Virus genome (UHGV): UHGV-0334146
Length of the DNA stretch: 47,430 nt
Reading direction: 5' to 3' (one strand)
Source of the DNA: a virus
This document shows positions 4,771 through 26,548 of this stretch, piece after piece; within the stretch, counting starts at the first letter, position 1; every line of letters starts with the position of its first letter. A program made the position numbers and the translations under genes. The notes under the pieces are model-generated. The model did no database searches and was not told the DNA's origin. It worked only from the letters and a program-made list of their open reading frames with translations.

Positions 4771-5953
4771 CTATATTGATGGTGATGTAGTCGCCCCATG
4801 TTGGGGAGCTTTCGCCGACGGGCGCCGCGATTTCGACACTCACCAAGTCGGTAACGCCCGTTCCGAGCACTGCGGAATAAAAGCGGCTGGCATACACCGT
4901 ATCCCCGATATGAACGCGCTGGCCCGTATTCCCGCAGGCGTCGGCGGTTTCTCCGTAGAACTCGGCGACAACAGCGGACTTGATGAGCTCTTCGACGTTG
5001 CTCGGCATTGAGGCATTTTTGCGGATAGTCACCTGAATGCCCACCGGAAGCGATTCCGGGCGCTCAAAGAGCACTGTTTCGACCGCTCCGGTTACAGGAT
5101 CAGTCACAGTGACTCTGATGTTGCCGTTGTAATCACATCCGGCGGAACAACGGGCGTAAATGGCCTCAGCAATATCATTATCCGTCGCGCTGCCGACGAC
5201 CGCCACATAAATTGAGTGCGGCTTGAGCGTGACGCCCTGCACTTCAAGCGGCGCGCTGGTTTTGTTCTCGCGCACACAGACATCAAGCACGCCATCCAGA
5301 TCGCCGACGTTGGCATAGACGGCGGCGGCAACGCTCCGGGCGTTCTTCGCGACGCTGGCGTAGCGCCGGGACTCGAACGCGGACCGGCTCTCGACGTTTT
5401 GCCCGGTGATCCCGACTTCATTGGTGATCGTGTCCCATCCGGGGATAGTACGCACGATCGTGGTCACGGTTCCCTGCCGGATTTCAATAGGTCCCGGAAC
5501 CTGACAGGCAAAATCAAGGATAATACTGCCGGATTGGGGGATCGTCCCCCCCGTTTGACAGACCAAAATGTTCCCGTCCGCATCTTTTGCAAGCGCCGGG
5601 GCGTCGCTACCGATGCCGGGGATGACGGTGCCGGGAAGCCCCGTACAAGTACAGGGGACGACCGTGGAGCATGCGGGCTGCCGGGTCAGAAAGTAAATCT
5701 TGGCGAGCGCGTCTTGATAGATACCCTCCGCAGTCTTGGGGTTGAACATATTCGCGAGGAACAAAAGCTGGCTGTTCTTGTCCTGCACGATGGCCGTTTC
5801 GGATGTGATGAGCTGTCCCTGCGGCGTGGCCGGATCCGGGTTCAGCCGATTGTCGAATGCCGCCTGCCAATTCGTTTCGACAGCGTCCCGGACGGTCGCG
5901 GTATCGGGTACGACCGGGCCGTTTTCGGTAAAATCGATGCTAGACTGCGACAT
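4700..5953 (-). CDS. Baseplate J-like protein
   Basis: 417 aa. Size, position upstream of the gpI-like and fibre genes, and N-terminal composition are typical of the Baseplate_J (P2 gpJ / Mu gp47) family. Confidence 0.6.
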   Translation of the reverse strand: MSQSSIDFTENGPVVPDTATVRDAVETNWQAAFDNRLNPDPATPQGQLITSETAIVQDKNSQLLFLANMFNPKTAEGIYQDALAKIYFLTRQPACSTVVPCTCTGLPGTVIPGIGSDAPALAKDADGNILVCQTGGTIPQSGSIILDFACQVPGPIEIRQGTVTTIVRTIPGWDTITNEVGITGQNVESRSAFESRRYASVAKNARSVAAAVYANVGDLDGVLDVCVRENKTSAPLEVQGVTLKPHSIYVAVVGSATDNDIAEAIYARCSAGCDYNGNIRVTVTDPVTGAVETVLFERPESLPVGIQVTIRKNASMPSNVEELIKSAVVAEFYGETADACGNTGQRVHIGDTVYASRFYSAVLGTGVTDLVSVEIAAPVGESSPTWGDYITINIDEAPTLVSDNVTVTIIETRSGRG

Positions 5954-6374
5954 CTGCGGTTTCCCCCGTCTCTGTAGTGATGCGGATCGTCCCGCTCAAG
6001 ATGCGTTTTTCAAGCCGGGAAAGCTGCGTATCAGCCTGCGCTACGCCGGGGACTTCAAGCGCACGGGCATTCGAGCGCGCACGCACGAGCTCGGCGGGAG
6101 GGAGGGACCCAAGCTCACGCATGAAGTACGTGATTCCGTCTTGCTGCGCGTAGTACGGTTCTCCTTGGAATGTGCGTACATACGATGCGACATCCTGCAC
6201 GATACGCATAGTCCCCCCTGCCGAAGCAAGATTGCCCCCCACGGAGAGCGTCAAATCCCACTGTTCATCAAGACGTAATGACAGGAGCCCCGAATCTACA
6301 ACTTCGGCAGATGATTGCACTTCATCACGAATATTGGACAGCGCGCGTACGTTCAAAACCGTTCGGAAATTCAT
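5940..6374 (-). CDS. Small baseplate wedge protein (gpW/gp25 or DUF2634 position)
   Basis: 144 aa immediately upstream of the J-like gene with an overlapping stop and start. There is no clear GPW_gp25 motif, so the call is positional. Confidence 0.35.
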   Translation of the reverse strand: MNFRTVLNVRALSNIRDEVQSSAEVVDSGLLSLRLDEQWDLTLSVGGNLASAGGTMRIVQDVASYVRTFQGEPYYAQQDGITYFMRELGSLPPAELVRARSNARALEVPGVAQADTQLSRLEKRILSGTIRITTETGETADVAV

Positions 6375-7213
6375 GATGCTGCCTTATCTGCAAGCCGAGC
6401 CTGCGCAGCGGCGACAAGCGTTGCTATGTCCCGCCACTCTCCATCGCCACAGAGCACGTAGGTGGCTTGTCCGGCGGCTGCGGGCGGAACAAGTCCGGAC
6501 GTTCCGGCTGCCGATGCCGTCGCGCCCTGCATTTCAGGCACGGAGATGATGCCGTTGATAGTGCGTATACCATCACCCAAGTTGCTCGTGAGAATCGCCT
6601 CACGCCACGGATAGTAAGAAAACGTATTATCCGAGTTAAAGAAACGCGTTCTATAATACATCCTGATGACTCTACCACCAATGGCGATAGAAAATTCCTG
6701 TATCCCATTGCCAGTATGATAAACATTCGCAACCCTCAGCCGCGCGGAGTAATTGCCACTCACCTCCAAAGGCGTGTTATTCACCACAGGGGTAAATGAA
6801 AAAAACTCACTGCGCAGGTATAAGGAATACTCGCCATTGACCCACCATTTATCGTCATTCAGGTTAAGCGTCGCGGCGTCATCAGCCGACGTCTTCGTAA
6901 ATCTTTGGATAGGCGGCGTACCAATCTGCCCTCTCTTGCTCGCAAGATCCTCAAGGTTCCCCCCAATCGCCACGTCTTTCACGGTGATCGCGCCGTCCGC
7001 TTCGGTCGTGGTCTTCCCGTCGACAAGGTTCGACGCCTGAGCACGCTCAAGTGCCTCGTTTGCCGTGGTTTGTGCAACTATCGCAGTAGACTGTGCTGCG
7101 TCTGCGGCTCCCTGCACTTGCTGAAAGAACCGTGTGGTTTGTCTCTCGAATTCGCTTCCGGAAAGCGGTCCTGTCGGCGGATGGTACTGAAAATCAGGCA
7201 TAACACCCTCCAT
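6371..7213 (-). CDS. Fibre / spike-tip-like protein inserted between the baseplate spike and the wedge
   Basis: 280 aa. Coiled-coil-like N-terminus, a central low-GC domain (about 6560-6900) and a fibre-like C-terminus (…ATYVLCGDGEWRD…). Its start is coupled to the gpV-like stop (ATG 7211-7213 overlapping TAA 7213-7215). Confidence 0.35.
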   Translation of the reverse strand: MEGVMPDFQYHPPTGPLSGSEFERQTTRFFQQVQGAADAAQSTAIVAQTTANEALERAQASNLVDGKTTTEADGAITVKDVAIGGNLEDLASKRGQIGTPPIQRFTKTSADDAATLNLNDDKWWVNGEYSLYLRSEFFSFTPVVNNTPLEVSGNYSARLRVANVYHTGNGIQEFSIAIGGRVIRMYYRTRFFNSDNTFSYYPWREAILTSNLGDGIRTINGIISVPEMQGATASAAGTSGLVPPAAAGQATYVLCGDGEWRDIATLVAAAQARLADKAAS

Positions 7214-7935
7214 TACTGTGGTTGTCCGGATATGCCGGAACCGGGCTCGACCCCGGTATGAACATGGGTTTCCAAGACCTTACCGTTACTCTCAACCGTC
7301 CCTCCCATGTTCGTGAGTCCGCCGGAGAACCGGGCCGGGCCGCCGTCACCCTGCGCCGTGCCCGTCCACGTCAAGGATCCGTTGATGCGCACATCGGCGT
7401 TGATGGTGAGGCCGTTTTCCGCCGTCAGGACGGAAGTTTCCCCGTGCATCGTCAGTTTGGCCACTCCTTCGATGGTGACGCCCTCGTCGTCGACCAGCAC
7501 ATAGCGTTCCGGCGCGGCGTTCAAGAAGCCTCCGAGATAGAAGCCGTCGCCTTTGCTCATGGCGCGGGCTGACCCCGGATTGACGTTTCCATCCTTCCCC
7601 CGGCTTTCCTTGAGCGATTCCGTGTCGCGCATGGCGTAGACGGCGAGGCCGATGTCACCCGGCTGAGGGTCGATGACGAGGGCGTTTTTTCCGCCCTGAA
7701 TGCGCAGGTAGGGAAGCTTGAAGAGCACGCTCTGCTCCTGCGCCTTCTGTTCGCCCGTCACCAAGTTGATGAGGGGTTGCACGTCGACGAAGCCCACCGG
7801 GGAGACGCCCGAGCCGGAGACGGCGACCACGCGAACGGGTTCCGCCGTGGCGATGCGCCCGAGCATCTGGCTGATCATGAAGTCCTGCGCGTTGTACTCG
7901 CTGGAATTTGTCGAGAGGCCGCGTTGTCCCTGCAT
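7213..7935 (-). CDS. Baseplate central spike, gpV / Mu gp45-like
   Basis: ORF trimmed to M21 (ATG 7933-7935), coupled TAATG with the upstream gene. The N-terminal …RIATAEPVRVVAV… and the C-terminal KVLETHVHTGVEPGSGISGQP are typical of Phage_base_V / COG4384 proteins. Confidence 0.6.
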   Translation of the reverse strand: MQGQRGLSTNSSEYNAQDFMISQMLGRIATAEPVRVVAVSGSGVSPVGFVDVQPLINLVTGEQKAQEQSVLFKLPYLRIQGGKNALVIDPQPGDIGLAVYAMRDTESLKESRGKDGNVNPGSARAMSKGDGFYLGGFLNAAPERYVLVDDEGVTIEGVAKLTMHGETSVLTAENGLTINADVRINGSLTWTGTAQGDGGPARFSGGLTNMGGTVESNGKVLETHVHTGVEPGSGISGQPQ

Positions 7936-9136: not shown

Positions 9137-9690
9137 CCGAAAATCCCCTCGCCTAGCTTTTTCAGTGTGCTTTTTTGCGTCGTCTGCCCCTGTTGTTTCC
9201 CGGCATCCGTGGTGCTTGCGTCGGTCGGATTCTTTGCCTGCGCCTTACTGATTGGCTTTATCGTTTCGTTGCTGTACTGCGGATCGACCTGCCGGATCTC
9301 TTGCAGCATGAGCCCTACAAGCAGCCTGTCCACACCGTTTTCGGCCTTGCGGTCGTAGTCGTAGGAGACAAGGTTGTAGTCGAGAAACGTTTTTTCCGGG
9401 GTGACGATGCTCACGAGGTCGGTGCTTTCCGCCAGCTTGTCCAGCGCCGTCAGAAACGCCGCAAGCTCGTCGCTCTTCCCCGTGCGGCCCAGCACGACCG
9501 ATATCGCCGTGGGAGAAGCGACCTTGTTGTAATCCGCGAAACTCCCTTTCTCGACCGGGTTGGAGCTGATTTTGTTCTCGGCCTTGATCGAGCAGGAAAA
9601 GAATGTGTCGAAGTCGAGGGCCTTGGCGCCGTCTTTATCGAAAATCGACCAGTTGCCGGGCTGTCCCGGCGGGAGCGCGCCGAATGCCAT
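9133..9690 (-). CDS. Hypothetical tail protein located just after the tape measure gene (XkdP / distal-tail position)
   Basis: ORF trimmed to MAFGALPPG…. Its ATG at 9688-9690 lies 1 nt after the tape-measure TGA at 9692-9694. Confidence 0.35.
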   Translation of the reverse strand: MAFGALPPGQPGNWSIFDKDGAKALDFDTFFSCSIKAENKISSNPVEKGSFADYNKVASPTAISVVLGRTGKSDELAAFLTALDKLAESTDLVSIVTPEKTFLDYNLVSYDYDRKAENGVDRLLVGLMLQEIRQVDPQYSNETIKPISKAQAKNPTDASTTDAGKQQGQTTQKSTLKKLGEGIFG

Positions 9691-9691
9691 G

Positions 9692-11500
9692 TCAGTACCC
9701 GAATGCGCTGTCTGCTTGCGCGGTTTGATTACGAAGTGCCGGAACCACTCCTTGGGCCATCCCTTCCGCATCTGTAGCCTGCGTGTAGACCTTGACCTCA
9801 CCCACATTGGTGGTTGACGTCATCTGACGCGAATTGTTGACGTTGCTCACGCTTCCCGGACGCGCATCCCCGGCGCGCACCTGCGGCGGCAGAATAGACG
9901 GGCGGACATCACTAACCCGCATCGAATCGGCGACGCCGCCGGGCTTGGCCTCGGCCTTCGTTTCTTCCGGGCGCGAAGACTCATCGCCGCCGAGCCAGTC
10001 CTTGATCCAGTCGGGAAGCAAATTGTAGAGCTTCTGGGCTACCCAGTTCAGCATTTCGACAAGCACATCGTTGATTTTGGAGATGCCTCCCCAGATCGTT
10101 TTGAGGGCTTCGATAACGCCTTTTCCGTCCAGCGTAAGAACGGAGTTGAAGAGCTTGGCGACCCCCGAAAGGGCATCCCAGACGCCCCCGAGGATACTTT
10201 TGATGCCTTCCCAAATAGCCTTGAAACGGGCCCCGATTTCGTCGCCGGTTCCGAACATCGCCCAGAGTCCGGAAAGTGCGGATTCTCCGCCGTTGATGTA
10301 GGTAATGAGATCGTCGACAACTAGCGCGATTGCGCCGATGGCCGCAATCAACGGCGTAAACGGGGCAATCGCAGCCCATGCCGCCGTCGCCATCGCGGTC
10401 AGGGCCGGAAGCATGAGCGTCGTAATGACCCCGGCCAACGCCGTAAAGAAGACGATCACGAACTGCTTGTTTTCTTTCACCCACCCGAGGAGGTCGCCGA
10501 GCAGGTTCGTCAAAAACGTGATCGCAGGGGAGACGGTGCTGGCGAAAAGGGCTGAGATGGCCTCCCATGCGTCATTGAGCCGCTGCTGCGCCTCCCGTTG
10601 CTTCTTCGCGTTTTCGATGTCCTGCTTGCTGTAGATGGCTTGAGCCTTCTGGACTTTCAGAAGATCCTCAATCCCTTTGCGGCCTTTAAGAATGAGCGGG
10701 ATGGTCTTTTCGTCGAAGCCTATCTGCGTGAGGATTGAGGTCGCTTTCTGGCGGTCGATTTTTGACGTGGCGTCGGAGAGACGAAGGAGTCCTTCTTCAA
10801 AGGAAACGGCCTTCCCTTTCGCATCCGTGAAGCTCACCCCCAAGTCTTTGGTCGCGTCTTTGAGCGGCCCCGAGTCGTGCAGGATGAGATCCTGCATCCA
10901 GTCGCCCAGATCCATGAACCGGGTCGAAAGCTCCTCGGCGTCAACCCCGGCGGAGGCTGCCGTCCTTTGCCATGCCTGCCAGTCTTCAATGCTCATGCCG
11001 AGCGCGTCCGAAGTCTTCTCAATAGCCTGAGCCTGCTCGTAATACTGCGCTATGGAGCTTTTCAGGATGGAAACGCCGCCGATGACGGCGAGGGCCTGCG
11101 CTGCCACGCTCTTGAGCCGTTCAAAGCCAAACGCGCCTTTGTCCGCCGCGTCTTCCAGCGAAACGCCCAATCTTTTCGCGGCGGCATCTAGGGCCTCAAG
11201 ACGTTCTTTTGCCGCTCCGGTGCGGATAAGCTCCTCGCGCATCCGCTGATACTCTTTCGTAACCTCACTAATTTCGCGGCCTTTTTGCACGGCTTCCTCA
11301 AAAGCGGCCTGCAACGAAGAGGCGGCATCGGCAGACTGGCCAAGTCCTTGGGCCCCCTTGACGCCTGCGTCATATGTCGCGCGCCCCGCGTCAACGGCTG
11401 CGGCCTGCACGCCGTCCAGTCCTTTTTGGGCGTTCTGCACCTGAGCTTTGAAAGCCCCTGCGGAGAGGATGAGGGAAACGACGAGTTCACCTGCGTTCAT
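9692..11500 (-). CDS. Tail tape measure protein
   Basis: 602 aa, Ala/Gln-rich with coiled-coil character and a central hydrophobic block (FVIVFFTALAGVITTLMLPALTAMATAAWAAIAPF…). It sits between the chaperone genes and the baseplate genes. Confidence 0.8.
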   Translation of the reverse strand: MNAGELVVSLILSAGAFKAQVQNAQKGLDGVQAAAVDAGRATYDAGVKGAQGLGQSADAASSLQAAFEEAVQKGREISEVTKEYQRMREELIRTGAAKERLEALDAAAKRLGVSLEDAADKGAFGFERLKSVAAQALAVIGGVSILKSSIAQYYEQAQAIEKTSDALGMSIEDWQAWQRTAASAGVDAEELSTRFMDLGDWMQDLILHDSGPLKDATKDLGVSFTDAKGKAVSFEEGLLRLSDATSKIDRQKATSILTQIGFDEKTIPLILKGRKGIEDLLKVQKAQAIYSKQDIENAKKQREAQQRLNDAWEAISALFASTVSPAITFLTNLLGDLLGWVKENKQFVIVFFTALAGVITTLMLPALTAMATAAWAAIAPFTPLIAAIGAIALVVDDLITYINGGESALSGLWAMFGTGDEIGARFKAIWEGIKSILGGVWDALSGVAKLFNSVLTLDGKGVIEALKTIWGGISKINDVLVEMLNWVAQKLYNLLPDWIKDWLGGDESSRPEETKAEAKPGGVADSMRVSDVRPSILPPQVRAGDARPGSVSNVNNSRQMTSTTNVGEVKVYTQATDAEGMAQGVVPALRNQTAQADSAFGY

Positions 11501-15025: not shown

Positions 15026-15594
15026 CTTTTGACTACCTCGTAATCGATGGACTTGAGCAGGCTTCCGGAATCGATGAGCGTCCCCTTTCCCGCGCCCTTG
15101 GCGTTTTTGCGGCGCTTGGTGGATTCGGCGTTGTCCGGGGGCATATTGCTCTTAATCGTCGCCTGAATGTCGTCTGCCATGCGGCGTCCCACAAGCCGCA
15201 TCGCATCTTTCGGCGTCCGTCCGGCTTCCAACGCTTCCGCGAGGTTATCGCACCATGCATCCGCCTTGGCATCGAGCGTTGAGCGCAGGAAAGGCCGGGA
15301 GGGGATGGTGACGGTGTGGGCTTTGACCGTCGCATCCTGCGCAAAATCACTTTTGCCCTTCTTCACGAACCGATTCCCGACGCTGCCGTTACGCTTCCGC
15401 TTGAAGTACAAGGTTTGCGTCCGCTCAGGGATTTCGATTGTTGCGCCGTATTCGTTGTACGCCGCATACTCCGCGACGGGAGTACTACCTTCGCCCCGCG
15501 TCGCATTTTCGAGCACCCCGGCCTTCACGACGATATCGGGGGTAATGTACCGCTTGAGCAGCTTTTCGAGTTCTCCGGACACCATTACCCCCAT
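15022..15594 (-). CDS. Virion morphogenesis / tail completion protein (Mu gpG / P2 gpS-like)
   Basis: ORF trimmed to M63 (MGVMVSGELEK…). …AEYAAYNEYGATIEIPERT…RPFLRS… resembles the Phage_tail_S motif (YA.IHQFGG…R.FLG). The upstream 62 codons overlap the preceding gene. Confidence 0.45.
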   Translation of the reverse strand: MGVMVSGELEKLLKRYITPDIVVKAGVLENATRGEGSTPVAEYAAYNEYGATIEIPERTQTLYFKRKRNGSVGNRFVKKGKSDFAQDATVKAHTVTIPSRPFLRSTLDAKADAWCDNLAEALEAGRTPKDAMRLVGRRMADDIQATIKSNMPPDNAESTKRRKNAKGAGKGTLIDSGSLLKSIDYEVVKR

Positions 15595-16507: not shown

Positions 16508-17296
16508 CTATGCAGCACGGCGAAGGCGGTACTTGCCCAGCATGTTCAGGTCGTTTTTCAGGGCCAGCCGGAAGGCTTCGATCACGTCGACGTGGTACGC
16601 CTTCACGCTCCCGAAACGGCTGTCCTCGATTTCCCGGATTTCGTAATCCATACGGCGGGACATATCGGAAAGCTTGCGTCCCGCGACGGAGTACGCGGCT
16701 GGCGTATCTGCGAAGACGTCAAGGAACCACGGGATGCCCTTCACGGACTTGTAGTCCCTGCCCCGCCCAAGTTCGTTCTCAAGAGCCGCAGCCTTGCGGA
16801 CGGCTGCGGAGGCGGTTGCCATCGCGGTGGCCTCGCGGTGTGAACCGATTTCGGCCTTGGTGCGGATAGCCTCGTCGCGCTCGGCTTCGATGCGCCTGAT
16901 GGTGTCCTGCGCGACCAGCACGGCGCGGGCGAGGATGGCTTCGGGGGTATCGTCCGGCTTGGCTATCAGGTAACCGCCCACCTTACGAATGGAGGGGATA
17001 ACCTCATGCGTCACCCACCGCTTGAACGCCTTGGCTTCGGGCTTGCGGGAACGCAGGATGAGGGAATACAGGCCCGGTTCGGAAATAATTGTCATTTCCT
17101 GCTTTCCACCGGGGGTGTCCATACTATGGACGCCCTTTTCATCCTCATCCAGAAGTGCAAGGCTTGAACGAGGGTTGCCCATTTCAAGAATATCGCACAC
17201 GTCTTTCGCCACGAACCATGGTTGCACCTTGCGCTCAACAACGCGAAGGGAACCGAACTTTTCATGCTCGAAAAGAGCCAAGGGGGAATTTTCCAT
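16508..17296 (-). CDS. Antirepressor, BRO-N domain with a KilA-C/ANT-like C-terminus
   Basis: Trimmed to M52 (MENSPLALFEHEKFGSLRVVERKVQPWFVAKDVCDILEMGNPRS… is the Bro-N signature), which follows RBS GGAGGTG. The conserved late motif lies 54 nt upstream. Confidence 0.7.
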   Translation of the reverse strand: MENSPLALFEHEKFGSLRVVERKVQPWFVAKDVCDILEMGNPRSSLALLDEDEKGVHSMDTPGGKQEMTIISEPGLYSLILRSRKPEAKAFKRWVTHEVIPSIRKVGGYLIAKPDDTPEAILARAVLVAQDTIRRIEAERDEAIRTKAEIGSHREATAMATASAAVRKAAALENELGRGRDYKSVKGIPWFLDVFADTPAAYSVAGRKLSDMSRRMDYEIREIEDSRFGSVKAYHVDVIEAFRLALKNDLNMLGKYRLRRAA

Positions 17297-17349
17297 CGCT
17301 GCACCTCCATAGTGTTTTGGAGATGATGCCGCATGGCGGCGTGGGGGCA

Positions 17350-17367
17350 CACCGTGAACAAGGTTCG
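17350..17367 (-). promoter_or_regulatory. Late-operon conserved motif, copy 2 (CACCGTGAACAAGGTTCG)
   Basis: Exact 18-mer 54 nt upstream of the antirepressor ATG. A minus-strand terminator lies immediately beyond it. Confidence 0.5.
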
Positions 17368-17374
17368 TACAGGC

Positions 17375-17397
17375 AAAAGAAAAGCCCCTTTCGGGGC
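17375..17397 (-). terminator. Intrinsic terminator on the minus strand
   Basis: Minus strand reads GCCCC-GAAA-GGGGC followed by TTTTCTTTT. It insulates the plus-strand moron block from the late promoter copy. Confidence 0.45.
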
Positions 17398-17470
17398 GGA
17401 GGGCGGCGGCGGTGGATTTTTGGAACGGCCTATGCCATGATAGCCTCATCTATAATAAGGGGGATGATGT

Positions 17471-18070
17471 ATGGCTACCTACATCAAGTTTCTGGCAGGG
17501 GACTACGGGAAAGAAGAATATATTTACATTAAAAATAAAAACAAGTTGCGTTGCTCTTCAAAAATGTTTGGAGCAAAGGAACTTTTTCTTTCCAGTATTG
17601 CCTCTTGCGAAGTAGCCAATGAAGAATCGGTCAAAAAGCTCGGCGGAACTTTGGGAGGCGCACTTGTCGGCGGCGTCTTGCTTGGAGGCATCGGAGCGGT
17701 TGCGGGTGCGGTAGCTGGAGGCAAGACGACTGAGTCTACCGTCATTATTGAGTTCAAAAATGGAAATAAGGCATTGGCAAAGGTGAATAGCCCCATGATG
17801 GAGGTTATCCGCGCACACCTTTTTGATGACCAATTGGCCCAAGAGCGTGGAGAACCAAACCCGCTTATACATCATGAACGTTCTCAGACGCCCCCTAAAA
17901 AAATTGCCCTTATCATTGGAGTGCTGATAACAGTAGTGCTAGCCGTATTGTGGCTGAGTTGTGCCCTCCAAACGCCGCCCAATACGAATGGGGCCTTGTT
18001 ATGGGGAATCCTCACTATCCTTTCCGGACTGTATTCTTGGAAAATCTATAAGAAAATATATAAATCTTAA
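17471..18070 (+). CDS. Glycine-zipper membrane protein (moron)
   Basis: 199 aa. GxxxG repeats (LGGTLGGALVGGVLLGGIGAVAGAVAGG) plus two C-terminal TM helices. About 40% GC against a genome GC of roughly 60%. TATAAT at 17451-17456 and RBS AAGGGGGA lie upstream. Confidence 0.55.
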   Translation: MATYIKFLAGDYGKEEYIYIKNKNKLRCSSKMFGAKELFLSSIASCEVANEESVKKLGGTLGGALVGGVLLGGIGAVAGAVAGGKTTESTVIIEFKNGNKALAKVNSPMMEVIRAHLFDDQLAQERGEPNPLIHHERSQTPPKKIALIIGVLITVVLAVLWLSCALQTPPNTNGALLWGILTILSGLYSWKIYKKIYKS

Positions 18071-18105
18071 TATATTAACTTGAATCCGAACAGGGAGAGA
18101 GGACC

Positions 18106-19176
18106 ATGGATTTTTCGGAAAGAATTGCTGAATTGTCGAAAAAGGTAAAGAATCTGGGAGATAGCCTCAAGACCGAAGAGGCCACGAAAAACGCCTTGGT
18201 GATGCCTTTTATCGCGGCCCTGGGATACGACGTTTTCAACCCTGCGGAAGTCGTGCCCGAATTTTCAGCCCCCATCGGCGAATATAAGGACGCCCGCGTG
18301 GACTATGCGATTCTTGTGGACGGCAAGCCTATCCTTCTTCTAGAGTGCAAGGCTTTGGGCACGTCTCTCGACATGAAGCACTGCAACCAGCTACAGCTTT
18401 ACTTCCACGGAACGGAAGCCCCTATTGCCATTCTGACAGACGGCAACCGCTACCGGTTCTATTCCGATCTTGAAACTGCCAACAAAATGGACAGCAAGCC
18501 CTATATGGAGTTCGTCCTTGACGATATGGACGAAATGCTGCTCCCGGAACTGCGCAAACTGGCAAAGGGCAAGTTTGATCGGGATGCCTGCATGAGCGCG
18601 GCAAACGAACTCAAGTACAACCGAGAGTTCAAACGCCTCATGTCCGAACAAATGGAAAAGCCGCACGAAGATTTCGCGCGCTTTTTCATCGGCCAGACGT
18701 ATGATGGACGTATCACGCAAAACGTTCTGGATCGCTTCACTCCAATCCTTACCGCTGCGCTTGACCAGTTCATCAACGACCGCATCAACGACCGCTTGAA
18801 AAATGCCATGACGCAGCAGAAACCGGAAATTGTAGAGATAGAGTCCGAAGATACCCCACAAGGAAAAGAGCAGGATTCGCGTATAGTCACCACCGAGGAA
18901 GAAAAAGAGGCGTATTACCTTGTCAAATCGCTTCTGATGGGCACCGTTGATCCGGGGCGCGTAGCCATGCGGGACAGTATCAGCTACTGCTCCATCCTTC
19001 TTGACGACAACAGGCTCAAGCCTCTGTGCCGCCTGTATTTCAACGGAAAACAGTGGAGGGTCGGACTGTTTGATGGGGAGAATAAGGACGCAAAGGAAGA
19101 CATCGAAAAACTGGAAGATATTATCCCCTTTGCGGATCGAATCCGGGCTACGGCCTTGAAATACGATAACAAGTAA
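18106..19176 (+). CDS. PD-(D/E)xK nuclease-fold protein with an HSDR_N (type I R-subunit N-terminal)-like domain
   Basis: 356 aa. EEATKNALVMPFIAALGYDVF…VDYAILVDGKPILLLECKALG parallels the EcoKI HsdR …FADYVLFVGLKPIAVVEAKR motif (D…E-x-K). Low GC. RBS GGGAGAGAGGACC precedes the ATG. Confidence 0.6.
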   Translation: MDFSERIAELSKKVKNLGDSLKTEEATKNALVMPFIAALGYDVFNPAEVVPEFSAPIGEYKDARVDYAILVDGKPILLLECKALGTSLDMKHCNQLQLYFHGTEAPIAILTDGNRYRFYSDLETANKMDSKPYMEFVLDDMDEMLLPELRKLAKGKFDRDACMSAANELKYNREFKRLMSEQMEKPHEDFARFFIGQTYDGRITQNVLDRFTPILTAALDQFINDRINDRLKNAMTQQKPEIVEIESEDTPQGKEQDSRIVTTEEEKEAYYLVKSLLMGTVDPGRVAMRDSISYCSILLDDNRLKPLCRLYFNGKQWRVGLFDGENKDAKEDIEKLEDIIPFADRIRATALKYDNK

Positions 19177-19527
19177 AACTTTCCAACGTGGCGTTGCCCG
19201 CCAATGATGAAGAACATCCAGATGCGGGCAATGCCACTGCTTTTCTCTTTACATTTTCCGAGTTTTGTGCTGTCTTTTGTGTACGGGCTTCAGAACCCCG
19301 TAGGCGGACAAACGCCACCCGATAGCATGGCGCTTTTTTATGCCCTTTTTCCAAAGTCAAGAGTTTTTCTTGGCTGTCTTTTGGGCTATTATTGCATCCA
19401 ATGTTTGCCGGGTGTGGCGGATATGTCCAAGCGAAAGCTAAAGGCCGCCAGCGGTTCCTACGCCGTTCTGAACACCCGGCGCTTTCTATTTCAGAGAGTG
19501 TAATTCAGACAATGTAGGAGTTGCATT

Positions 19528-20448
19528 ATGGAAATGGCCCTAATCTTCAACGAATTTATCTTCACGCCTGTCACTCACCAAAACAGTCTCTGGATTCGTT
19601 CTTCTGAATTGGCTAAAGCACTTGGCTATTCCGACGACCGCAAGGTTGGTGTGCTCTATGCCCGACATAAGGATGAATTCTCCAATAATATGAGCGTGGT
19701 TCTCAATTTGAGTACCACGGATGTACCCGCTATGAATCGCATCTTTTCCCTTCGCGGTTGCCATTTGGTTGCGATGCTAGCGCGTACTCCTATTGCCAAG
19801 GCCTTCCGCAAGTGGGTGCTAGACGTCATCGAGCAGTACGGCGACAGGGTGCCAGTTGAAAGCCCTGTGACGCTCAACGATGAGCTGATCAGTGCGGCGG
19901 AACGTGCCGAACTCAAGCTCATCGTAGACGCCAAGCTCTCAACATACCCCGCCGCCGTGCAGGGCAAGGCCCGCGCCGAGATATGGGCGAAGCACAACCG
20001 CCATTTCCGCATCGCGGAATACAGCCAGCTCCCGGCCCGGCTTATGCCCGAGGCCCGCGAGTTTCTGCTTTCCGTCCGCGTCCGCGCCATCAATGCCATA
20101 CCCACGGCGGAATCCGCGATCCCGTACCCGTCGCTTCCCGTCGCATCGTCACTATACCGCGACCGCGTGAGGGAGCTTGAACGGCTCGAACAGGATTGGA
20201 TGGAACTTGCAGTCCTGATCCGCGACCGCGCTTATGGACTGGAACGAGACTTCCGCCGAGTGACGCAAGGAACGTATCCCGAACTGCTCCGGCATGTATC
20301 GCCATCCGGGAAGACGCCCGTTGACGCGCTTATCCAGCTCATGACAGCCCCAACCTACACCGCCCGGCAAAACCTCGAATCCGCGCTTGATGATATGCGT
20401 CTTGCCATCCGTGCCGCGAAGACCGCGAACAGGTTGATGCTAGGGTAA
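19528..20448 (+). CDS. BRO-N domain protein (antirepressor-like)
   Basis: 306 aa. The N-terminal FIFTPVTHQNSLWIRSSELAKALGYSD… is a Bro-N signature. RBS GTAGGAG. Confidence 0.65.
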   Translation: MEMALIFNEFIFTPVTHQNSLWIRSSELAKALGYSDDRKVGVLYARHKDEFSNNMSVVLNLSTTDVPAMNRIFSLRGCHLVAMLARTPIAKAFRKWVLDVIEQYGDRVPVESPVTLNDELISAAERAELKLIVDAKLSTYPAAVQGKARAEIWAKHNRHFRIAEYSQLPARLMPEAREFLLSVRVRAINAIPTAESAIPYPSLPVASSLYRDRVRELERLEQDWMELAVLIRDRAYGLERDFRRVTQGTYPELLRHVSPSGKTPVDALIQLMTAPTYTARQNLESALDDMRLAIRAAKTANRLMLG

Positions 20449-20503
20449 TCCTTGGCAAGCCTACATGAATCATATAAGACTTTACCAACGGAGGGATTCC
20501 CCC

Positions 20504-20815
20504 ATGCTGCTGTTCGATGATGGGAAAAAGCTTGAAAAGGCCGTCGGCGAGGAAGCCGCAAAAGCCATCGTGGAAGTACTGGAACGCTTTGACGAGAGTC
20601 AAAGGAACGCCAGTGCTACCAAGGGAGATCTGCGCGAAACTGAACTGCGGTTGCAAAAAGAAATTCGGGAATTGGACCTGAAAGTGCAAGCGGAGATCGA
20701 AAAAATTCGTGCTGAAGTGTTGAAGGTCAAGTATGATCTTTTGAAATGGCAAATTGCCATAGGGTTTGCCCTTGTCGCAGTTATGGCCAAGGGCTTCGGC
20801 TGGCTCGGATTCTAA
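20504..20815 (+). CDS. XhlA-like coiled-coil membrane protein
   Basis: Trimmed to M14 (RBS GGAGGGA). Coiled-coil N-terminus and a C-terminal TM (WQIAIGFALVAVMAKGFGWLGF). Confidence 0.45.
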   Translation: MLLFDDGKKLEKAVGEEAAKAIVEVLERFDESQRNASATKGDLRETELRLQKEIRELDLKVQAEIEKIRAEVLKVKYDLLKWQIAIGFALVAVMAKGFGWLGF

Positions 20816-20838
20816 TAAAGAAAGAATATCGTAGAAAA

Positions 20839-20872
20839 GGGGTGGCTTTAAGAGCCGCCCCTTTTTGTTTTT
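20839..20872 (+). terminator. Strong intrinsic terminator
   Basis: GGGGTGGC-tttaaga-GCCGCCCC followed by TTTTTGTTTTT, with AAAA upstream. Confidence 0.65.
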
Positions 20873-20915
20873 CTGCCTCTCCCTTCTGTTACTGATGAGT
20901 TAAAAAAGATAAAAC

Positions 20916-20961
20916 TTTTTTTGAAAAAATTGTTTATTTTTTCAAAAAATGGTGCTATTGT
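20916..20961 (+). promoter_or_regulatory. Promoter with a 13-bp inverted-repeat operator upstream of the three-gene moron
   Basis: TTTTTTTGAAAAAA-ttgttta-TTTTTTCAAAAAA (two mutually inverted AT palindromes), then TGcTATTGT as a -10-like element, then RBS AAAGGAGAAG and the ATG at 20994. Confidence 0.45.
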
Positions 20962-20993
20962 ATTTTCAACGAAAGGGTAAAGGAGAAGCCACC

Positions 20994-21497
20994 ATGAAGC
21001 TGTACCACGGAAGCATGATTGAACATTTGGCTATCTCTAACTCAGGAACAGGGTTAGGGTATAACTTCGGAGCGATGTTCTTTGCCCGCACGTATGGAAC
21101 AGCAAAGGGATACGGAGATTACGTCTACCAGTGCGAAGTAGACGTCAAGGATATCTTTTTTACGGAAGACCTTCCGTATCTTGATGACGGTGCTGCGGGA
21201 ACGGCTCTACGTGAAATTATGGAAGAGCGCGGGATAGACGAAATCCATTTTGATCTATGCTGGCAAGCCGTGGTTTCGGAAGAACTGGACTTTCAAGAAC
21301 GAGGAGACTGGGCAGACCTTCTCGGAATGGACGAGGACGACGCGGGTTGGGAGGCTCAGGCCATGCGTATCGCCTTTGCCCGTAAGTTGGGCTTCAAGGC
21401 TGTTGGAATGGATGACGAATGTGGAAGTATCGCGGTTCTTCCCGAGTTCATAAAGCTGGAAGCGTCAACGGAGGCAGACGATGAAGAGGAAGACTAA
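20994..21497 (+). CDS. Small acidic protein; possible minimal PARP-like (H-Y-E class) ADP-ribosyltransferase
   Basis: 167 aa. The N-terminal MKLYHGS…NFGAMFFARTYGTAKGY…YVYQCEVD resembles the PARP catalytic H-G-S, Y-x-F-G-x-G-x-Y-F-A and Y…E elements. The C-terminal 50 aa are highly acidic (…EASTEADDEEED). About 45% GC. The fold assignment is an inference. Confidence 0.45.
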   Translation: MKLYHGSMIEHLAISNSGTGLGYNFGAMFFARTYGTAKGYGDYVYQCEVDVKDIFFTEDLPYLDDGAAGTALREIMEERGIDEIHFDLCWQAVVSEELDFQERGDWADLLGMDEDDAGWEAQAMRIAFARKLGFKAVGMDDECGSIAVLPEFIKLEASTEADDEEED

Positions 21498-22872
21498 GAT
21501 AGACATCGACGATCTTATCGATTTCAGTTCAAAGCTGGTGAACTCGAATTCCAGCATCGGTATTCGCTTGTCGTCGGGTGCCGCGCTCTCCCTTCCGTAC
21601 CTGTCCACGAGGACATGTCTTGCGGCAGGGATTTCTATGCCGCTGGATACGGCAAACGGGGCCAAGGATGTGGGAAAGGTAAGTGCTCTATACAAGACAC
21701 TCGAAGAGGGGGAGGAAGGAGAGAAAGCAGATACAGAGGCGGCATTGAAGAAAATCCGTAAAACAGGATTTGCCAGAAAAACAGAGTCTGTCGACAGACG
21801 GATTCGTCAACTGCTCATCCCTAAAGACGTACCCTCTGGGTATGTCTCTTTGTCTCCCCTCCCCTCCATTGGACTTTCCGTTTTGCTGTTAGGAGCCGTT
21901 ACAAGGCATAATCAAGATGTCTTTTCAAAAAAGAAGGAAGGTATCAAAATTCGACGGGCACATCTCGCTTTGGGCGGGGCAAACCCTCAGAATCTAGGAT
22001 ACGCTGCGTCCAAAAAGGCGATACAATATCCTGTTTTTCTTTCTACACCCAAATCCGTGCGCGGAAATGCCAGCCGTCAGGCGTCAGGAAAGGGAACTTA
22101 CCTGATCCTTTCCAATCTCTTTGTGCAAACGGCAAACATCTTGACGAATTATACTATGCTCAACGGCGCGCCCCTCTTTGCAGCATGGGGGATGGGACAT
22201 GCACTGGAGCGCGAGATGCATGGTCCCAAAGTTACCGGAGTATGCCTTGTTGTGCATAGCATCGAACCCCTTGGGGAGCATGAAACCGCTATTTTCGAGC
22301 CTAGCCAAAGATTAGGAGCGGCTTTTACTTTTGAAAAATCCCGTAACGGGAGCGACTACGCAAAAGGCTCCACACATCTCTCTTTGCAGCCCGGTGCAAC
22401 GGGGCATATACGGGTGAGCCTTATCTTTGAACTGTCGGAAGCCCTGCATTCCGTACCGAACGCCGTGGATCTTTTCTTGAACTTCGGAAAGTTCTCCGGT
22501 GGGCTGATCACTTCATACGACGCCCCGGCTTTGCATGATGACCGCTCTACGCTTCTAGAGTGCATTCCCGCCGGGAAAGTTGTTTTGGATCGGCGCGACG
22601 TTATGAGCCCTGGAAACCCCATTGAACAGCTTGTAACCGCGATAGGAACGTACAGCGGAAAATGGCTGTCCGCAACGAATATCGGTTTTTCAGCAATCAC
22701 AGACTTTCAAGTTCGCGGAGGGGCACGGAACGGGTGCCTCCATGCTTTTGCGGAGCCGCTGATCGGCATTACAGAATACGTCTCTACTGAAAAGAGGATA
22801 CACGGGTATTTCTGGCGCAGCCAGTGGGAAGAAGATAGCTTTTTGATGAGGGGAGATTCAACAAATGAATGA
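21481..22872 (+). CDS. Hypothetical 463-aa protein with no recognisable domain
   Basis: It overlaps the preceding gene by 17 nt and the following gene by 8 nt, which indicates translational coupling. Low GC. No Walker, HTH or nuclease motifs were recognised. Confidence 0.55.
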   Translation: MKRKTKIDIDDLIDFSSKLVNSNSSIGIRLSSGAALSLPYLSTRTCLAAGISMPLDTANGAKDVGKVSALYKTLEEGEEGEKADTEAALKKIRKTGFARKTESVDRRIRQLLIPKDVPSGYVSLSPLPSIGLSVLLLGAVTRHNQDVFSKKKEGIKIRRAHLALGGANPQNLGYAASKKAIQYPVFLSTPKSVRGNASRQASGKGTYLILSNLFVQTANILTNYTMLNGAPLFAAWGMGHALEREMHGPKVTGVCLVVHSIEPLGEHETAIFEPSQRLGAAFTFEKSRNGSDYAKGSTHLSLQPGATGHIRVSLIFELSEALHSVPNAVDLFLNFGKFSGGLITSYDAPALHDDRSTLLECIPAGKVVLDRRDVMSPGNPIEQLVTAIGTYSGKWLSATNIGFSAITDFQVRGGARNGCLHAFAEPLIGITEYVSTEKRIHGYFWRSQWEEDSFLMRGDSTNE

Positions 22873-23086
22873 TGCACAAGAAAAAAAGCAGGGGGGACGC
22901 CGTAAAGGATCTGGACGTAAAAAAAAGGTTGAAAATCGTGCAACAGTAAAGACTGTATCTATGCCGGATCATGTCTGGGAACGGCTGAACGATGTATGTA
23001 CGGATAGGGGTATCCTACGCTCACAGGTAGTACGGGAAGCAGTCGAGATGTGGCTGGACGCAAATATACAGCAGCTTGGAAAATGA
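22865..23086 (+). CDS. Ribbon-helix-helix (CopG / ParD-like) DNA-binding protein
   Basis: 73 aa. A basic N-terminus is followed by …TVKTVSMPDHVWERLNDVCTDRGILRSQVVREAVEMWL, a classic RHH β-α-α pattern. Confidence 0.6.
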   Translation: MNDAQEKKQGGRRKGSGRKKKVENRATVKTVSMPDHVWERLNDVCTDRGILRSQVVREAVEMWLDANIQQLGK

Positions 23087-23099
23087 CGCCTGACTACGT

Positions 23100-23140
23100 A
23101 AAGAAAGCCCCAACCGCCTGTTTAACGGTTGGGGCTTTCG
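23100..23140. terminator. Bidirectional intrinsic terminator between the moron and the capsid gene
   Basis: AAAGAAA-GCCCCAACC-gcctgtttaac-GGTTGGGGC-TTTCG. Confidence 0.65.
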
Positions 23141-23159
23141 CATGGAGGGAAGGATGGGA

Positions 23160-24173
23160 CTAGGCTCCAGTCATTTGCGCAAAGGCAAAGGGCATGAGCA
23201 CGATACCGCCGTAGGTGGTGCCGACGAACTTCTGACGGAAGCTGGACAGGTCGGGCACGACGCGTCCAGCACGCATCTTTTCTCCGAAGGCCAGCGTGCC
23301 GGATCGCTGCCCGTTCACTTCGGGGGCGATGAGGAACATGGTTTCCCCGGCGGTCATGCTGTGCAGCTCGGGGACGGTCACGATGTCAATGCGGGTGAAG
23401 TACCGCTTCAACATATCCAGCACGGACACGTTGAAATCGGTAGCCGCGCCGAGGCGAACGGCCAGTTCGGGGGAGAGGCAGAGCTTGAGGGGCGTGTCTT
23501 TGTCAATAAGGCCGCTGGACTGCTCGGAAAGCTGTGCGAACAGGGCGAGGACGTCGTTGTAGATTTGCACCGTGGTCTTGTCGGCCCATTTCGTGGAGCC
23601 GCCCGTGCCCGTGGCCCCTGCGGTGATCGCAGCAGGGAGGTTCGGATCGTTGAGGATGCCGTAGATTTCCTTCCCGGCGACGCCGAGCAGGTAGAAACGG
23701 TTCTGGTCGATGTCGATGACGTTGGCGGCCGCACGCTGCTTGGAGGCAGCGAGGTTGACTTTCGCCGTGCTCGACATGTCCACTTCAAAGTCTCCGTAGG
23801 TGATGGACGTCTGGAAGACGTACTGCACGCGGGTTTGCCATTCGGAGTTCACGCCCGAAGTCGTGCCGTTGGCATAGTCGGAATACGGCTCGGTCTTTCC
23901 GGTCATTTCGTCCACGCGCCACTTCATGTACGGGGTCGTCCAATCGCCCTTCTTCTCTTCACCGAAGATTTCACGGGCGCGCCGGGGCGCGGTCAGGATT
24001 TCGATGACCATCGGGTCGATATACGCCAGAAGCTCGGCGGGGACGGTCGTGTTCGGAGTAGTGATGAGCGCGGCGTCCTGCGCAATGCGGGCGCGGTTCT
24101 CCGGAGTTGCCCACATGCGGGCGCCCGGGAAGATAAAGCCGTAGCGCTTGGCCTGTTCAAAAGTCGGATTCAT
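23160..24173 (-). CDS. Major capsid protein
   Basis: 337 aa. It is the last gene of the portal→protease/scaffold→capsid operon. RBS AGGAGGTACTAC-ATG. Confidence 0.6.
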   Translation of the reverse strand: MNPTFEQAKRYGFIFPGARMWATPENRARIAQDAALITTPNTTVPAELLAYIDPMVIEILTAPRRAREIFGEEKKGDWTTPYMKWRVDEMTGKTEPYSDYANGTTSGVNSEWQTRVQYVFQTSITYGDFEVDMSSTAKVNLAASKQRAAANVIDIDQNRFYLLGVAGKEIYGILNDPNLPAAITAGATGTGGSTKWADKTTVQIYNDVLALFAQLSEQSSGLIDKDTPLKLCLSPELAVRLGAATDFNVSVLDMLKRYFTRIDIVTVPELHSMTAGETMFLIAPEVNGQRSGTLAFGEKMRAGRVVPDLSSFRQKFVGTTYGGIVLMPFAFAQMTGA

Positions 24174-24183
24174 GTAGTACCTC

Positions 24184-24822
24184 CTACGCTCCGGCGGCGG
24201 CTGCGCCGAGGTTGGTGCGGGCCTGTTCCGCAGTGGTTGCGCCAGTTCCGCCGTTGGCCACGCCGAGCGCTCCGGTGGCGTTGCTGAAATCTTTCTGCAT
24301 CAGGTTCGAGGTGTCGCCGCCGGATCCCGACGCTGCGGCCTGTCCCCAATTGCTGATGATGATCGGTTCCCCGATTTCGCCGGGCGTCTTGACGACCCAC
24401 CCCGTATCGAGGTGCGTGGCGTCGGGGGTCCCGGTGCTGATTGAACCGTCAGCGGTGGAGGCAAGGACAGCCTGCCCCACCGTGGCCTTGGTCGTGGAAA
24501 CGGCCCAATAGTCGCCCTTTACGGCCACGGTGAGGTTCGAGCCTGCCGGGACGGTCAAAGTGCCGTCAGAAAGCAGTTCGTAGTTCACGTAGTTGATGAC
24601 GCGCTCCACGAAGCCGAGCACGGCTGTGGCGGTGCCAGCAACGTTGGTGGCCTGCGTGTTGTCGATCACGCCGGAATCCACGACGGGGAAGACGAAGCGC
24701 CCCACAGGGAGGGCCACCGCCGCCAGAGGGTTGAGCGGGGTGTAGATGCTCTGGTCGGGCGTCGCTTTATCGCCAGCAACGCCGGGAGCGACGGAGAGAT
24801 TGACTTGGGACTGCAAAGGCAT
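24184..24822 (-). CDS. Head structural / decoration-like protein (hypothetical)
   Basis: Trimmed to M41 (strong RBS AGGAGG). Gly/Thr-rich. It sits between the scaffold and capsid genes. Confidence 0.4.
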   Translation of the reverse strand: MPLQSQVNLSVAPGVAGDKATPDQSIYTPLNPLAAVALPVGRFVFPVVDSGVIDNTQATNVAGTATAVLGFVERVINYVNYELLSDGTLTVPAGSNLTVAVKGDYWAVSTTKATVGQAVLASTADGSISTGTPDATHLDTGWVVKTPGEIGEPIIISNWGQAAASGSGGDTSNLMQKDFSNATGALGVANGGTGATTAEQARTNLGAAAAGA

Positions 24823-24832
24823 GGTGTGCCTC

Positions 24833-26548
<1,716 letters not shown>

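Follow-up and report, generated by a model that had tools for sequence, protein, structure and literature searches.

Anti-CRISPR (Acr) proteins of the AcrIF11 family are ADP-ribosyltransferases (ARTs), and for AcrIF11Pae2 (PDB 8DWQ, mBio 2025) both the ADP-ribosylation of Csy1 (Cas8f) and the protection of phages depend on the residue pairs H20/Y46 and D146/E147 (PMC12421852). Csy1 is the sole detectable target of AcrIF11 in cells, the enzyme recognises Cas8f only in the assembled complex, contacts to Cas7f included, and AcrIF11 homologues are active alone in Pseudomonas (PMC12421852). The residue that AcrIF11 modifies, N250 of the PA14 protein, reads the protospacer-adjacent motif (PAM; bioRxiv 10.1101/453720). 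Viral cas genes can likewise serve as anti-CRISPRs, as described for AcrIB3 and AcrIB4 (Katz et al., bioRxiv 10.1101/2023.06.24.545427; PMC13131331). With respect to regulation, a 2026 study showed experimentally that Aca14, a ribbon-helix-helix (RHH) protein of Pasteurella multocida, represses acr operons via an AT-rich inverted repeat at the promoter, and the same work mentions that an operon nearby codes for AcrIF6 and a Cas5f homologue (PMC13551039). Here we analyzed a three-gene island in the virus genome UHGV-0334146, a stretch of 47,430 nucleotides (nt) that we refer to as the window. We consider it likely that this island is an operon of acr and anti-CRISPR-associated (aca) genes in a temperate Bilophila phage, encoding AcrIF11, a Cas8f-Cas5f fusion anti-CRISPR and an RHH repressor. 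A preliminary description of this DNA had put the island forward as the best candidate for an undescribed system; AcrIF11 is a known family and RHH Aca proteins are known (2026), and what is new here is the type I-F fusion, a variant of the already described class of viral cas anti-CRISPRs. The three open reading frames (ORFs) are the following, with protein lengths in amino acids (aa):

20994-21497, + strand: AcrIF11-family gene, 167 aa, first gene of the island
21481-22872, + strand: truncated cas8f-cas5f fusion gene, 463 aa, second gene
22865-23086, + strand: RHH gene, 73 aa, third gene

The ORFs overlap by 17 nt (first and second) and 8 nt (second and third), as expected from the coupled arrangement that had been read from the sequence, and each is preceded by a GGAG-type ribosome-binding site. 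The fusion gene thereby overlaps acrIF11 upstream and the RHH gene downstream, and it has the same neighbours in most related loci. For the first gene, we preferred the start of the 167-aa protein over a longer ORF from 20949, because all homologues open with MKLYHGS and an AAGGAG site lies in front of it.

The first gene and the AcrIF11 family

The 167-aa protein matches the NCBIfam equivalog NF052490.1 with 96.8 bits (cutoff 50; E 2e-27) over aa 1-147 of 167 and 140 of the 142 profile positions, which places it in a described family and not among undescribed ARTs. A precomputed Pfam annotation existed for 28 of 32 homologues and was PF26151 (AcrIF11_ADP_ribosyl) in all 28. When all PDB sequences were searched with the protein and with a profile of its family, only 8DWQ (AcrIF11Pae2, 1.4e-8) and 6KYF (AcrIF11Pae1, 1e-5) were found. 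H5, Y34, D141 and E142 are invariant across 17 homologues of 53-95% identity and align with H20, Y46 and D146/E147 of AcrIF11Pae2. Based on the alignment, these key residues are encoded at:

21006-21008, + strand: H5
21093-21095, + strand: Y34
21414-21419, + strand: D141/E142

The preliminary description had proposed an ADP-ribosyltransferase with a histidine, a tyrosine and a glutamate as catalytic elements. The first two were well chosen, as the histidine of the H-G-S motif and the tyrosine of F-A-x-x-Y are the invariant residues that align with H20 and Y46 of AcrIF11Pae2. The third, E48 of YVYQCEVD, sits at a position where homologues have K, Q or a gap, and the role of catalytic acid falls to D141/E142. 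Nor did we find the 50-residue polyacidic tail that had been likened to a DNA mimic: the acidic tail comprises 12 residues (aa 156-167, eight of them D or E), and residues 118-147 are part of the conserved AcrIF11 fold, bearing the catalytic D141/E142 loop.

Judged by its sequence, gene 1 is a member of a known family and encodes an AcrIF11-type anti-CRISPR ADP-ribosyltransferase. It shares with AcrIF11 (6KYF, 8DWQ) the length class, the H/Y nicotinamide-pocket pair and the D-E catalytic loop, and it likewise lies in a phage acr operon with a regulator gene, its host genus having type I-F systems in which the target asparagine is conserved. Unlike the characterized Pseudomonas AcrIF11 proteins, to which it is at most about 30% identical, it bears the 12-residue acidic C-terminal tail, and its host belongs to the Desulfovibrionaceae, with a Cas8f that has N, not K, at the wedge position of PA14 K247.

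The family assignment bears on the broader function of the island, which had been compared to toxin-antitoxin, abortive-infection and anti-defence modules. If an ART toxin acted together with a partner and an RHH antitoxin, as a toxin-antitoxin, abortive-infection or other new defence module, the outline of enzyme, partner, RHH protein and operator would be superficially similar to the one seen here, and the single hit of the 167-aa protein in our local Pfam copy was a weak, sub-threshold match to ART-PolyVal (E 0.11). The ART is, however, an AcrIF11 equivalog, of a family that modifies only Csy1 in cells (PMC12421852), its partner is Cas-derived, and the composition of the locus varies in the manner typical of acr loci. 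PADLOC returned no defence model for proteins 1 and 3 and Cas models alone for protein 2, and Pfam and NCBIfam searches of the three proteins gave no DarT, DarG or CmdT match. We therefore regard a toxin-antitoxin or abortive-infection module, including one resembling DarTG or CmdTAC, as highly improbable. Among the categories suggested, anti-defence is the right one.

Anatomy and history of the fusion gene

The 463-aa protein, in which no recognisable domain had been noticed, yielded strong matches to the PADLOC models of Cas8f (aa 10-193, E 2.8e-20) and Cas5f (aa 208-453, E 1.9e-21) and scored 40.9 bits against Pfam Cas_Csy2 (gathering score 25). Alignment divides it into three parts:

21505-22056, + strand: Cas8f-derived part, aa 9-192, N-terminal core including the GGANPQN loop
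22057-22095, + strand: linker, aa 193-205, with no counterpart in Cas8f or Cas5f
22096-22869, + strand: Cas5f-derived part, aa 206-463, a complete Cas5f

The Cas8f part is 31.6% identical to residues 74-308 of Bilophila Cas8f (475 aa) and 30% identical to residues 41-275 of Lawsonia Cas8f (453 aa); the corresponding values for the Cas5f part are 42% for residues 3-268 of Bilophila Cas5f (277 aa) and 41% for residues 2-273 of Lawsonia Cas5f (278 aa). All 43 columns that are invariant in the fusions and the bona fide Cas5f proteins of the subfamily are kept. In an alignment with P. aeruginosa Csy1, fusion residue N171 (21991-21993, in the GGANPQN loop) corresponds to PA14 Cas8f N250 and is invariant in 67 of 67 sequences. 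Missing from the fusion are the first ~40-70 and the last ~170 residues of Cas8f, the Cas8f part stopping near PA14 residue 270-275, ahead of R282. From about R282 onwards, PA14 Cas8f forms a helical bundle whose arginines complete the R-loop channel and one helix of which recruits Cas2/3 through R390/N393/L395, and the arm R24-R58 is part of the DNA vise (bioRxiv 10.1101/453720). The fusion thus retains the Cas8f core that contacts Cas5f, the handle of the CRISPR RNA (crRNA) and the PAM, and has lost the nuclease-recruiting bundle. More tentatively, it may also lack the N-terminal arm of Cas8f, where we are cautious because the alignment is distant in that part. In the same set, the PA14 K247 column is occupied by asparagine in 62 of the 67 sequences, which belong to the Desulfovibrionaceae/Acinetobacter-type Cas8f subfamily, and strand splitting in those I-F systems may differ from the Pseudomonas model.

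RefSeq lists the fusion as "type I-F CRISPR-associated protein Csy2" and the adjacent AcrIF11 homologue as "hypothetical protein". We rejected a bona fide Cas5f (Csy2, the NCBI name of WP_417023524.1) as an explanation, as the Csy2 equivalog TIGR02565 reaches 38.3 bits, far under its cutoff of 154.1, and the gene does not lie between cas8f and cas7f.

Cas8 and Cas5 likewise form one polypeptide in the I-F3 systems of CRISPR-associated transposons (CAST; Vibrio cholerae Tn6677 6PIG; 9VTQ), and these chains are the best profile-level PDB matches of the fusion. Full-length CAST fusions keep the Cas8 helical domain and are encoded together with cas7, cas6 and tniQ/tns genes. The two kinds of protein differ in size, the CAST fusions measuring ~700 aa in genomes (L090-L093, L numbers being our handles for loci) and 511-695 aa in solved chains, with examples to 701, compared to 463 aa in the phage, and PADLOC Cas85f models match only the last 60-77 residues of the phage fusion (aa 381-457). 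Near the fusion, no cas7/cas6 or transposition genes were identified; tniQ and tns genes were absent from the profiled window genes, with no search aimed at them. On account of its nearest relatives, which are individual genes in I-F1 operons containing Cas2/3 and Cas1, we rejected an origin from a CAST I-F3 fusion and regard the fusion event as independent of CAST.

Cascade functions without a nuclease in type IV and I-F3 systems, and the fusion might similarly join host Cas7f, Cas6f and crRNAs in a nuclease-free surveillance complex serving the phage or prophage, for example by CRISPR interference (CRISPRi)-like silencing of competing phages or plasmids. Such a hijack would be in keeping with the complete Cas5f and all its family-invariant residues, the retained PAM-reading loop of Cas8f and the purifying selection on both halves described below, as well as with the natural Cas8/Cas5 fusions that operate in nuclease-free I-F3 systems and head the list of PDB profile matches. 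Moreover, Katz et al. discuss viral cas genes as possibly stimulating immunity in lysogens (bioRxiv 10.1101/2023.06.24.545427). We nonetheless consider a hijack unlikely: the co-operonic AcrIF11 would inactivate any complex with the conserved asparagine, the hybrid included, the window contains no crRNA source, tniQ or other effector (with no search aimed at tniQ), and the missing N-terminal arm and R-loop channel arginines speak against stable DNA binding. In an elaborated version, which we give no more than the same low probability, the fusion would turn the host's crRNA-loaded backbone into a hybrid, nuclease-free complex under phage control, the DNA binding of which AcrIF11 could switch off early because the fusion keeps the AcrIF11-target asparagine. 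In a lysogen with an RHH-repressed operon, low-level fusion could then leave a Cas2/3-independent, CRISPRi-like activity or shield the prophage from self-targeting. If true, this would represent a phage-run re-wiring of the type I-F effector and not plain inhibition.

The distribution of the fusion differs from that of its bacterial relatives. In an exhaustive HMMER search of 1.84 billion cluster representatives, one 50%-identity cluster spanned both halves and all others matched one half. Full-length relatives (60-99% identity, 460-472 aa) were found only in gut metagenomes and Bilophila genomes, in phage contexts, and the fusion is restricted to Bilophila phages. Scanning species-representative genomes with the family alignment revealed 73 loci, the closest of which, at 38-43% identity, are found in Bilophila, Desulfovibrio, Lawsonia and Mailhella and are type I-F1 operons with cas8f and cas5f adjacent but separate. 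The two genes were separate ORFs in all 60 bacterial I-F loci where both could be checked, and the only fusions among the scanned bacterial loci were the 700-aa CAST-type proteins of Vreelandella and Oleiphilus. A single-protein scan of species-representative genomes found no fused gene, and a second homology search from the alignment added no further relatives. Neither the DNA of 19000-25000 nor the fusion protein had a match among GenBank phages; plasmids gave ordinary I-F operons only, plus plasmid H4, which matches the Cas8f-like half alone. Within the window, we detected no Cas7f, Cas6f, Cas1 or Cas2/3 homologue besides the fusion, and no CRISPR repeat, RNA anti-CRISPR or Rfam family.

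The fusion sequences are monophyletic and form their own clade; the neighbour-joining tree of the Cas8f half was unstable (long branches, half the columns missing) and was used for this monophyly only. Gene 2 appears to derive from a cas8f-cas5f pair that the phage acquired from an I-F locus of the Desulfovibrionaceae type and then reshaped. The pairwise ratio of non-synonymous to synonymous substitution rates (dN/dS) was 0.12-0.23 in both halves, even with synonymous sites saturated, and ~0.5-0.9 for the linker in five of six pairs, the sixth pair being without non-synonymous change. As the ORF is also intact across lineages down to 59% identity, the fusion is under purifying selection, a phage gene and not debris. 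These data speak to the possibility that the fusion is a functionless cas remnant of imprecise excision and that only AcrIF11 and the RHH protein matter, an idea to which its deletion or truncation in three related phages (L018, L019, L020) and the simple NCBI label Csy2 would lend themselves. Given the maintained ORF and low dN/dS at saturated synonymous divergence, the conservation of all Cas5f-invariant residues, and a position that is always inside the acr operon and before the regulator gene, we judge a remnant to be quite improbable.

The gene has an earlier record in the literature. Table S3 of Katz et al. lists, for the provirus IMGVR_UViG_2562617176_000002 of Bilophila wadsworthia 3_1_6, a cas8f match at 16736-17317 and a cas5f match at 17348-18115 (bioRxiv 10.1101/2023.06.24.545427). 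The two matches lie 612 nt apart, hence in one reading frame, and evidently represent the same fusion gene, counted as two orphan cas matches. Our literature search retrieved no paper that presents the gene as a fusion, analyzes its missing parts or tests it.

Regulation, host and action of the proposed operon

The 73-aa product of the third gene (pI 10.0) consists of a basic N-terminal arm followed by a ribbon-helix-helix. It matches the transcriptional repressor phrog_876 (1e-4) and, in the PDB, the CopG-family regulator 7BY2 (E 0.006), and small proteins at the same position in other loci exceed the RHH_1 threshold. Wherever a related locus has an intact fusion and its downstream sequence is readable, an RHH gene lies 3' of the fusion. 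Ahead of the operon, two regulatory elements overlap:

20921-20950, + strand: sigma-70-like promoter, TTGAAA-18 nt-AAAAAT (consensus scan, 9 of 12 matches)
20917-20949, no strand assigned: putative operator of two AT-rich palindromes overlapping the promoter, TTTTTTGAAAAAAT at 20917-20930 and ATTTTTTCAAAAAA at 20936-20949

The promoter is the sole consensus match in 20300-23400, a region for which shuffled sequences averaged 2.5 matches, so that the match is weak when taken alone; the GC content of the promoter region is 31%. The palindromes are perfect reverse complements of each other (100% mutually complementary), with starts 20 bp apart. We found the same pair 5' of the operon in L010, L012, L013, L015, L017 and L020 and a slightly changed pair in L011, L016 and L018. 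It was not found in L001/L003, which carry a different RHH, and in general the pair is present wherever an RHH of the 73-aa type is present and missing where another RHH is used. The idea of an own promoter overlapped by two inverted AT palindromes, with an RHH regulator behind this inverted-repeat operator, is in good agreement with the TTGAAA-AAAAAT site within 20917-20950, the fully complementary arms of the palindromes, the RHH, CopG and phrog_876 signals, and the co-conservation of the operator. Gene 3 is, by these sequence features, a putative Aca-type autorepressor of the RHH class. It resembles Aca14 (WP_005725436.1), by the published description of the latter, in being a small RHH protein of an acr operon with an AT-rich inverted repeat over the promoter. 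It differs from Aca14 as described in the long basic N-terminal arm of its product and in its operator, two copies of a 13-bp palindrome with 20 bp spacing.

We further asked whether hosts of this phage family carry the corresponding immune system. Complete Bilophila I-F1 loci were present in L021 and L023, the former, from Bilophila sp. MGYG-HGUT-01277, comprising cas2/3, cas8f, cas5f, cas7f, cas6f, cas1 and arrays with the repeat GTTATCCGCCGTGTAGGCGGTTTAGAAG. Among 853 spacers from the fetched I-F loci, exactly two align over at least 24 nt to this phage family; both are from L021, and each aligns along its entire 32 nt. One of them matches the window itself:

10914-10945, + strand: protospacer in the tape-measure gene with a 5'-CC PAM (L021 spacer at 15053, 30 of 32 bases, E 1.8e-8, flank ...TCC)

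The second, which belongs to the same array, matches sister phages (L011 at 9519-9550 and others) with 28-30 of 32 bases, again with CC before the protospacer. CC is the type I-F PAM. The spacer match constitutes a direct link between host and phage. A literature search found no work linking Bilophila, a gut pathobiont, to anti-CRISPRs.

The related phages also revealed how the operon varies. The acrIF11, fusion and RHH genes are direct neighbours in L005 and in ten related phage loci from IMG/VR, and in eight of these loci the flanking capsid genes are nearly identical to those of the window. L001 and L002 show a rearranged order, with the fusion first, then a 56-aa RHH and acrIF11, and in L003 a 118-aa GNAT acetyltransferase (5010-5366) takes the place of acrIF11. 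A GNAT gene, a 56-aa gene or both lie directly 5' of acrIF11 in L008, L009, L019 and L005, and in L008 and L009 they stand between the operator pair and acrIF11. The fusion is deleted except for its last 38 codons in L018 (6001-6120) and its first 22 codons in L020 (6001-6066), with acrIF11 and the RHH gene kept in both; in L019 (6001-6111) it is cut to its first 37 codons, acrIF11 being kept and no RHH gene being detected downstream. These natural deletion and truncation variants mark the fusion as accessory and dispensable, and the expected co-occurrence of the three genes applies to most relatives, the genes being separable modules of a variable acr locus.

This separability is relevant to a further scenario, in which the fusion works with AcrIF11, as a substrate mimic, as a sponge that buffers the enzyme, or as an adaptor presenting AcrIF11 to Cas7f-bound complexes. 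The target asparagine is kept in all fusion homologues, the two genes are translationally coupled here, and the requirement of AcrIF11 for an assembled complex with Cas7f contacts (PMC12421852) would suit an adaptor. On the other hand, L003 has the fusion without acrIF11, L018 and L020 have acrIF11 without the fusion, and AcrIF11 homologues suffice alone in Pseudomonas (PMC12421852), which leaves such a partnership decidedly unlikely in our view.

As side observations on these loci, the genes of L008 at 4947-5303 and 5324-5494, also seen in L009 and L019, encode the 118-aa GNAT protein (Acetyltransf_7/1 above the gathering score) and the 56-aa protein, respectively; in L005 the 56-aa gene is at 59-229. 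Their position, beside acrIF11 or in its place, suggests additional candidates for enzymatic anti-defence functions, in the manner of AcrVA5, an anti-CRISPR acetyltransferase. Of the phages with a fusion gene, L001 is the most divergent; directly 5' of its fusion (6253-7718) it encodes a NYN-domain protein and a HicB-like antitoxin, and it lacks the AT-palindrome operator.

For the acr-aca operon that we favour, the following course of action can be envisaged. On phage entry, the strong promoter would fire. By analogy with characterized AcrIF11, the first protein should act catalytically, using NAD+ to ADP-ribosylate the PAM-reading asparagine of Cas8f (PA14 N250) in complexes present before infection, and thereby abolish DNA binding. 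The fusion, a single-chain "tail" module, would rival the host Cas8f:Cas5f heterodimer in binding the crRNA 5' handle and the Cas7f backbone, and the complexes bearing it should be unable to recruit Cas2/3 and probably unable to lock the R-loop. It would accordingly act on newly assembled complexes, as a defective-subunit anti-CRISPR of the AcrIB3/AcrIB4 kind that complements AcrIF11. Upon accumulation, the RHH protein would bind the two palindromes over the promoter and shut the operon after an initial burst, as Aca proteins do. We infer the AcrIF11 and RHH steps from family precedent and the fusion step from its anatomy and the precedent of AcrIB3/AcrIB4.

The comparison with these type I-B inhibitors is instructive. 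Like AcrIB3/AcrIB4, the fusion is a phage-borne homologue of Cascade subunits, ~40% identical to host proteins and in its own clade, an orphan beside other acr genes that has lost one functional element, and by analogy a defective-subunit action is expected. Unlike them, it is of type I-F and joins two subunits in one chain, and it has lost the Cas8f helical bundle and N-terminal arm, not the Cas5 hook; AcrIB4 represents the opposite piece of the large subunit, its C-terminal domain alone. AcrIF3 and, as a candidate, the fusion would both exploit the fact that type I-F interference needs the Cas8f helical bundle to recruit Cas2/3. AcrIF3 is similar to the bundle and binds Cas2/3, whereas the fusion is the remainder of Cas8f and would act inside the complex, and the fusion has the detectable sequence homology to Cas8f that AcrIF3 is without.

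Several points weigh against the proposed operon. The AlphaFold2 model of the 167-aa protein has a pLDDT of 56.7, with the beta-sheet region below 50, and a Foldseek search of this low-confidence model against the PDB gave no match at E <= 0.001; the structure prediction of the fusion has a pLDDT of 41.6, both predictions resting on alignments with 16-17 close sequences. The Pfam matches of the 73-aa protein to RHH_1 (E 0.018) and RHH_3 (E 0.035) are under the gathering score, and the mapping to PA14 Csy1 beyond the GG-x-x-P-Q-N loop relies on a distant alignment. A pure decoy would have no obvious need of the AcrIF11 target asparagine, yet the fusion retains it; N171 may be a passive result of loop retention, or it may allow AcrIF11 to silence hybrid complexes too. 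The fusion is dispensable in the sister phages L018 and L020, and its contribution may be small or conditional. Finally, the GTDB representative of B. wadsworthia was not among the I-F matches, the I-F-bearing hosts shown being other Bilophila species-level genomes.

If active, the fusion would be the first type I-F anti-CRISPR built from Cas subunits, and the first with two subunits welded into one chain and the nuclease-recruiting domain removed. It would also amount to a natural experiment on which parts of Cas8f and Cas5f suffice for assembly, and the presence of an enzymatic Acr beside it suggests that the two share the work, AcrIF11 being directed at pre-existing complexes and the fusion at new ones. 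Nuclease-free type I-F tools could make use of a compact Cas8f-Cas5f module without the helical bundle. The locus is a record of an arms race in Bilophila, and it corrects the database labels "Csy2" and "hypothetical protein".

Boundaries and setting of the island

The island is bounded by terminators on both sides:

20834-20866, + strand: intrinsic terminator of the upstream gene (20465-20815), left boundary (15-pair stem with 7 GC pairs, T-run)
23103-23139, both strands: bidirectional hairpin terminator, right boundary, between the RHH gene (+) and the major capsid gene (-) (14-16-bp GC-rich stem)

The left hairpin has a folding energy of -25.4 kcal/mol (z -4.9), and the right one, located between convergent genes, of -28.3 kcal/mol on the + strand and -29.7 on the - strand (z -4.7 and -5.9), with a T-rich tail on the strand of the capsid gene. 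The consensus scan overlooked the right hairpin because its + strand loop is 9 nt. Strong terminators on both sides had been predicted, and these values are in line with that view. The GC content had been given as about 44%; we measured 49.4% for 20880-23140, which is still below the 56.7% of the whole window.

The genes of the window include integrase, tape measure, tail sheath, portal, large terminase, head protease, major capsid and cement protein, and the window is a temperate contractile-tailed phage or prophage of Bilophila. The island is flanked by a + strand accessory block (Bro-N antirepressor, 116-aa membrane protein) and by the major capsid and cement genes on the - strand, which confirms its placement beside capsid genes on the opposite strand. 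The accessory block, at 17.4-23.1 kb on the + strand, also holds an HSDR_N-type endonuclease in addition to the Bro-N antirepressor and the small membrane protein.

Downstream of the island, a 381-aa ORF at 23142-24287 (+) runs antisense to the major capsid gene (23160-24173, -) and is almost certainly a spurious, high-GC shadow ORF. Upstream, the genes at 17471-19176 (+) encode a 199-aa protein (phrog_20920) and a 356-aa HSDR_N-domain endonuclease (phrog_4225, E 1e-114); they are low in GC too (47-51%) and may be further host-interaction genes. The 116-aa protein encoded at 20465-20815 has a coiled coil and a C-terminal hydrophobic segment, with a CCDC90-like match below threshold, and is kept beside the acr operon in nearly all related phages. 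Bro-N/Ant-type antirepressor genes lie on either side of the accessory block, at 16508-17449 (-) and 19528-20448 (+). Related phages have other antirepressor alleles in this place (49-99% identity), a sign of mosaic exchange in the surroundings of the acr operon.

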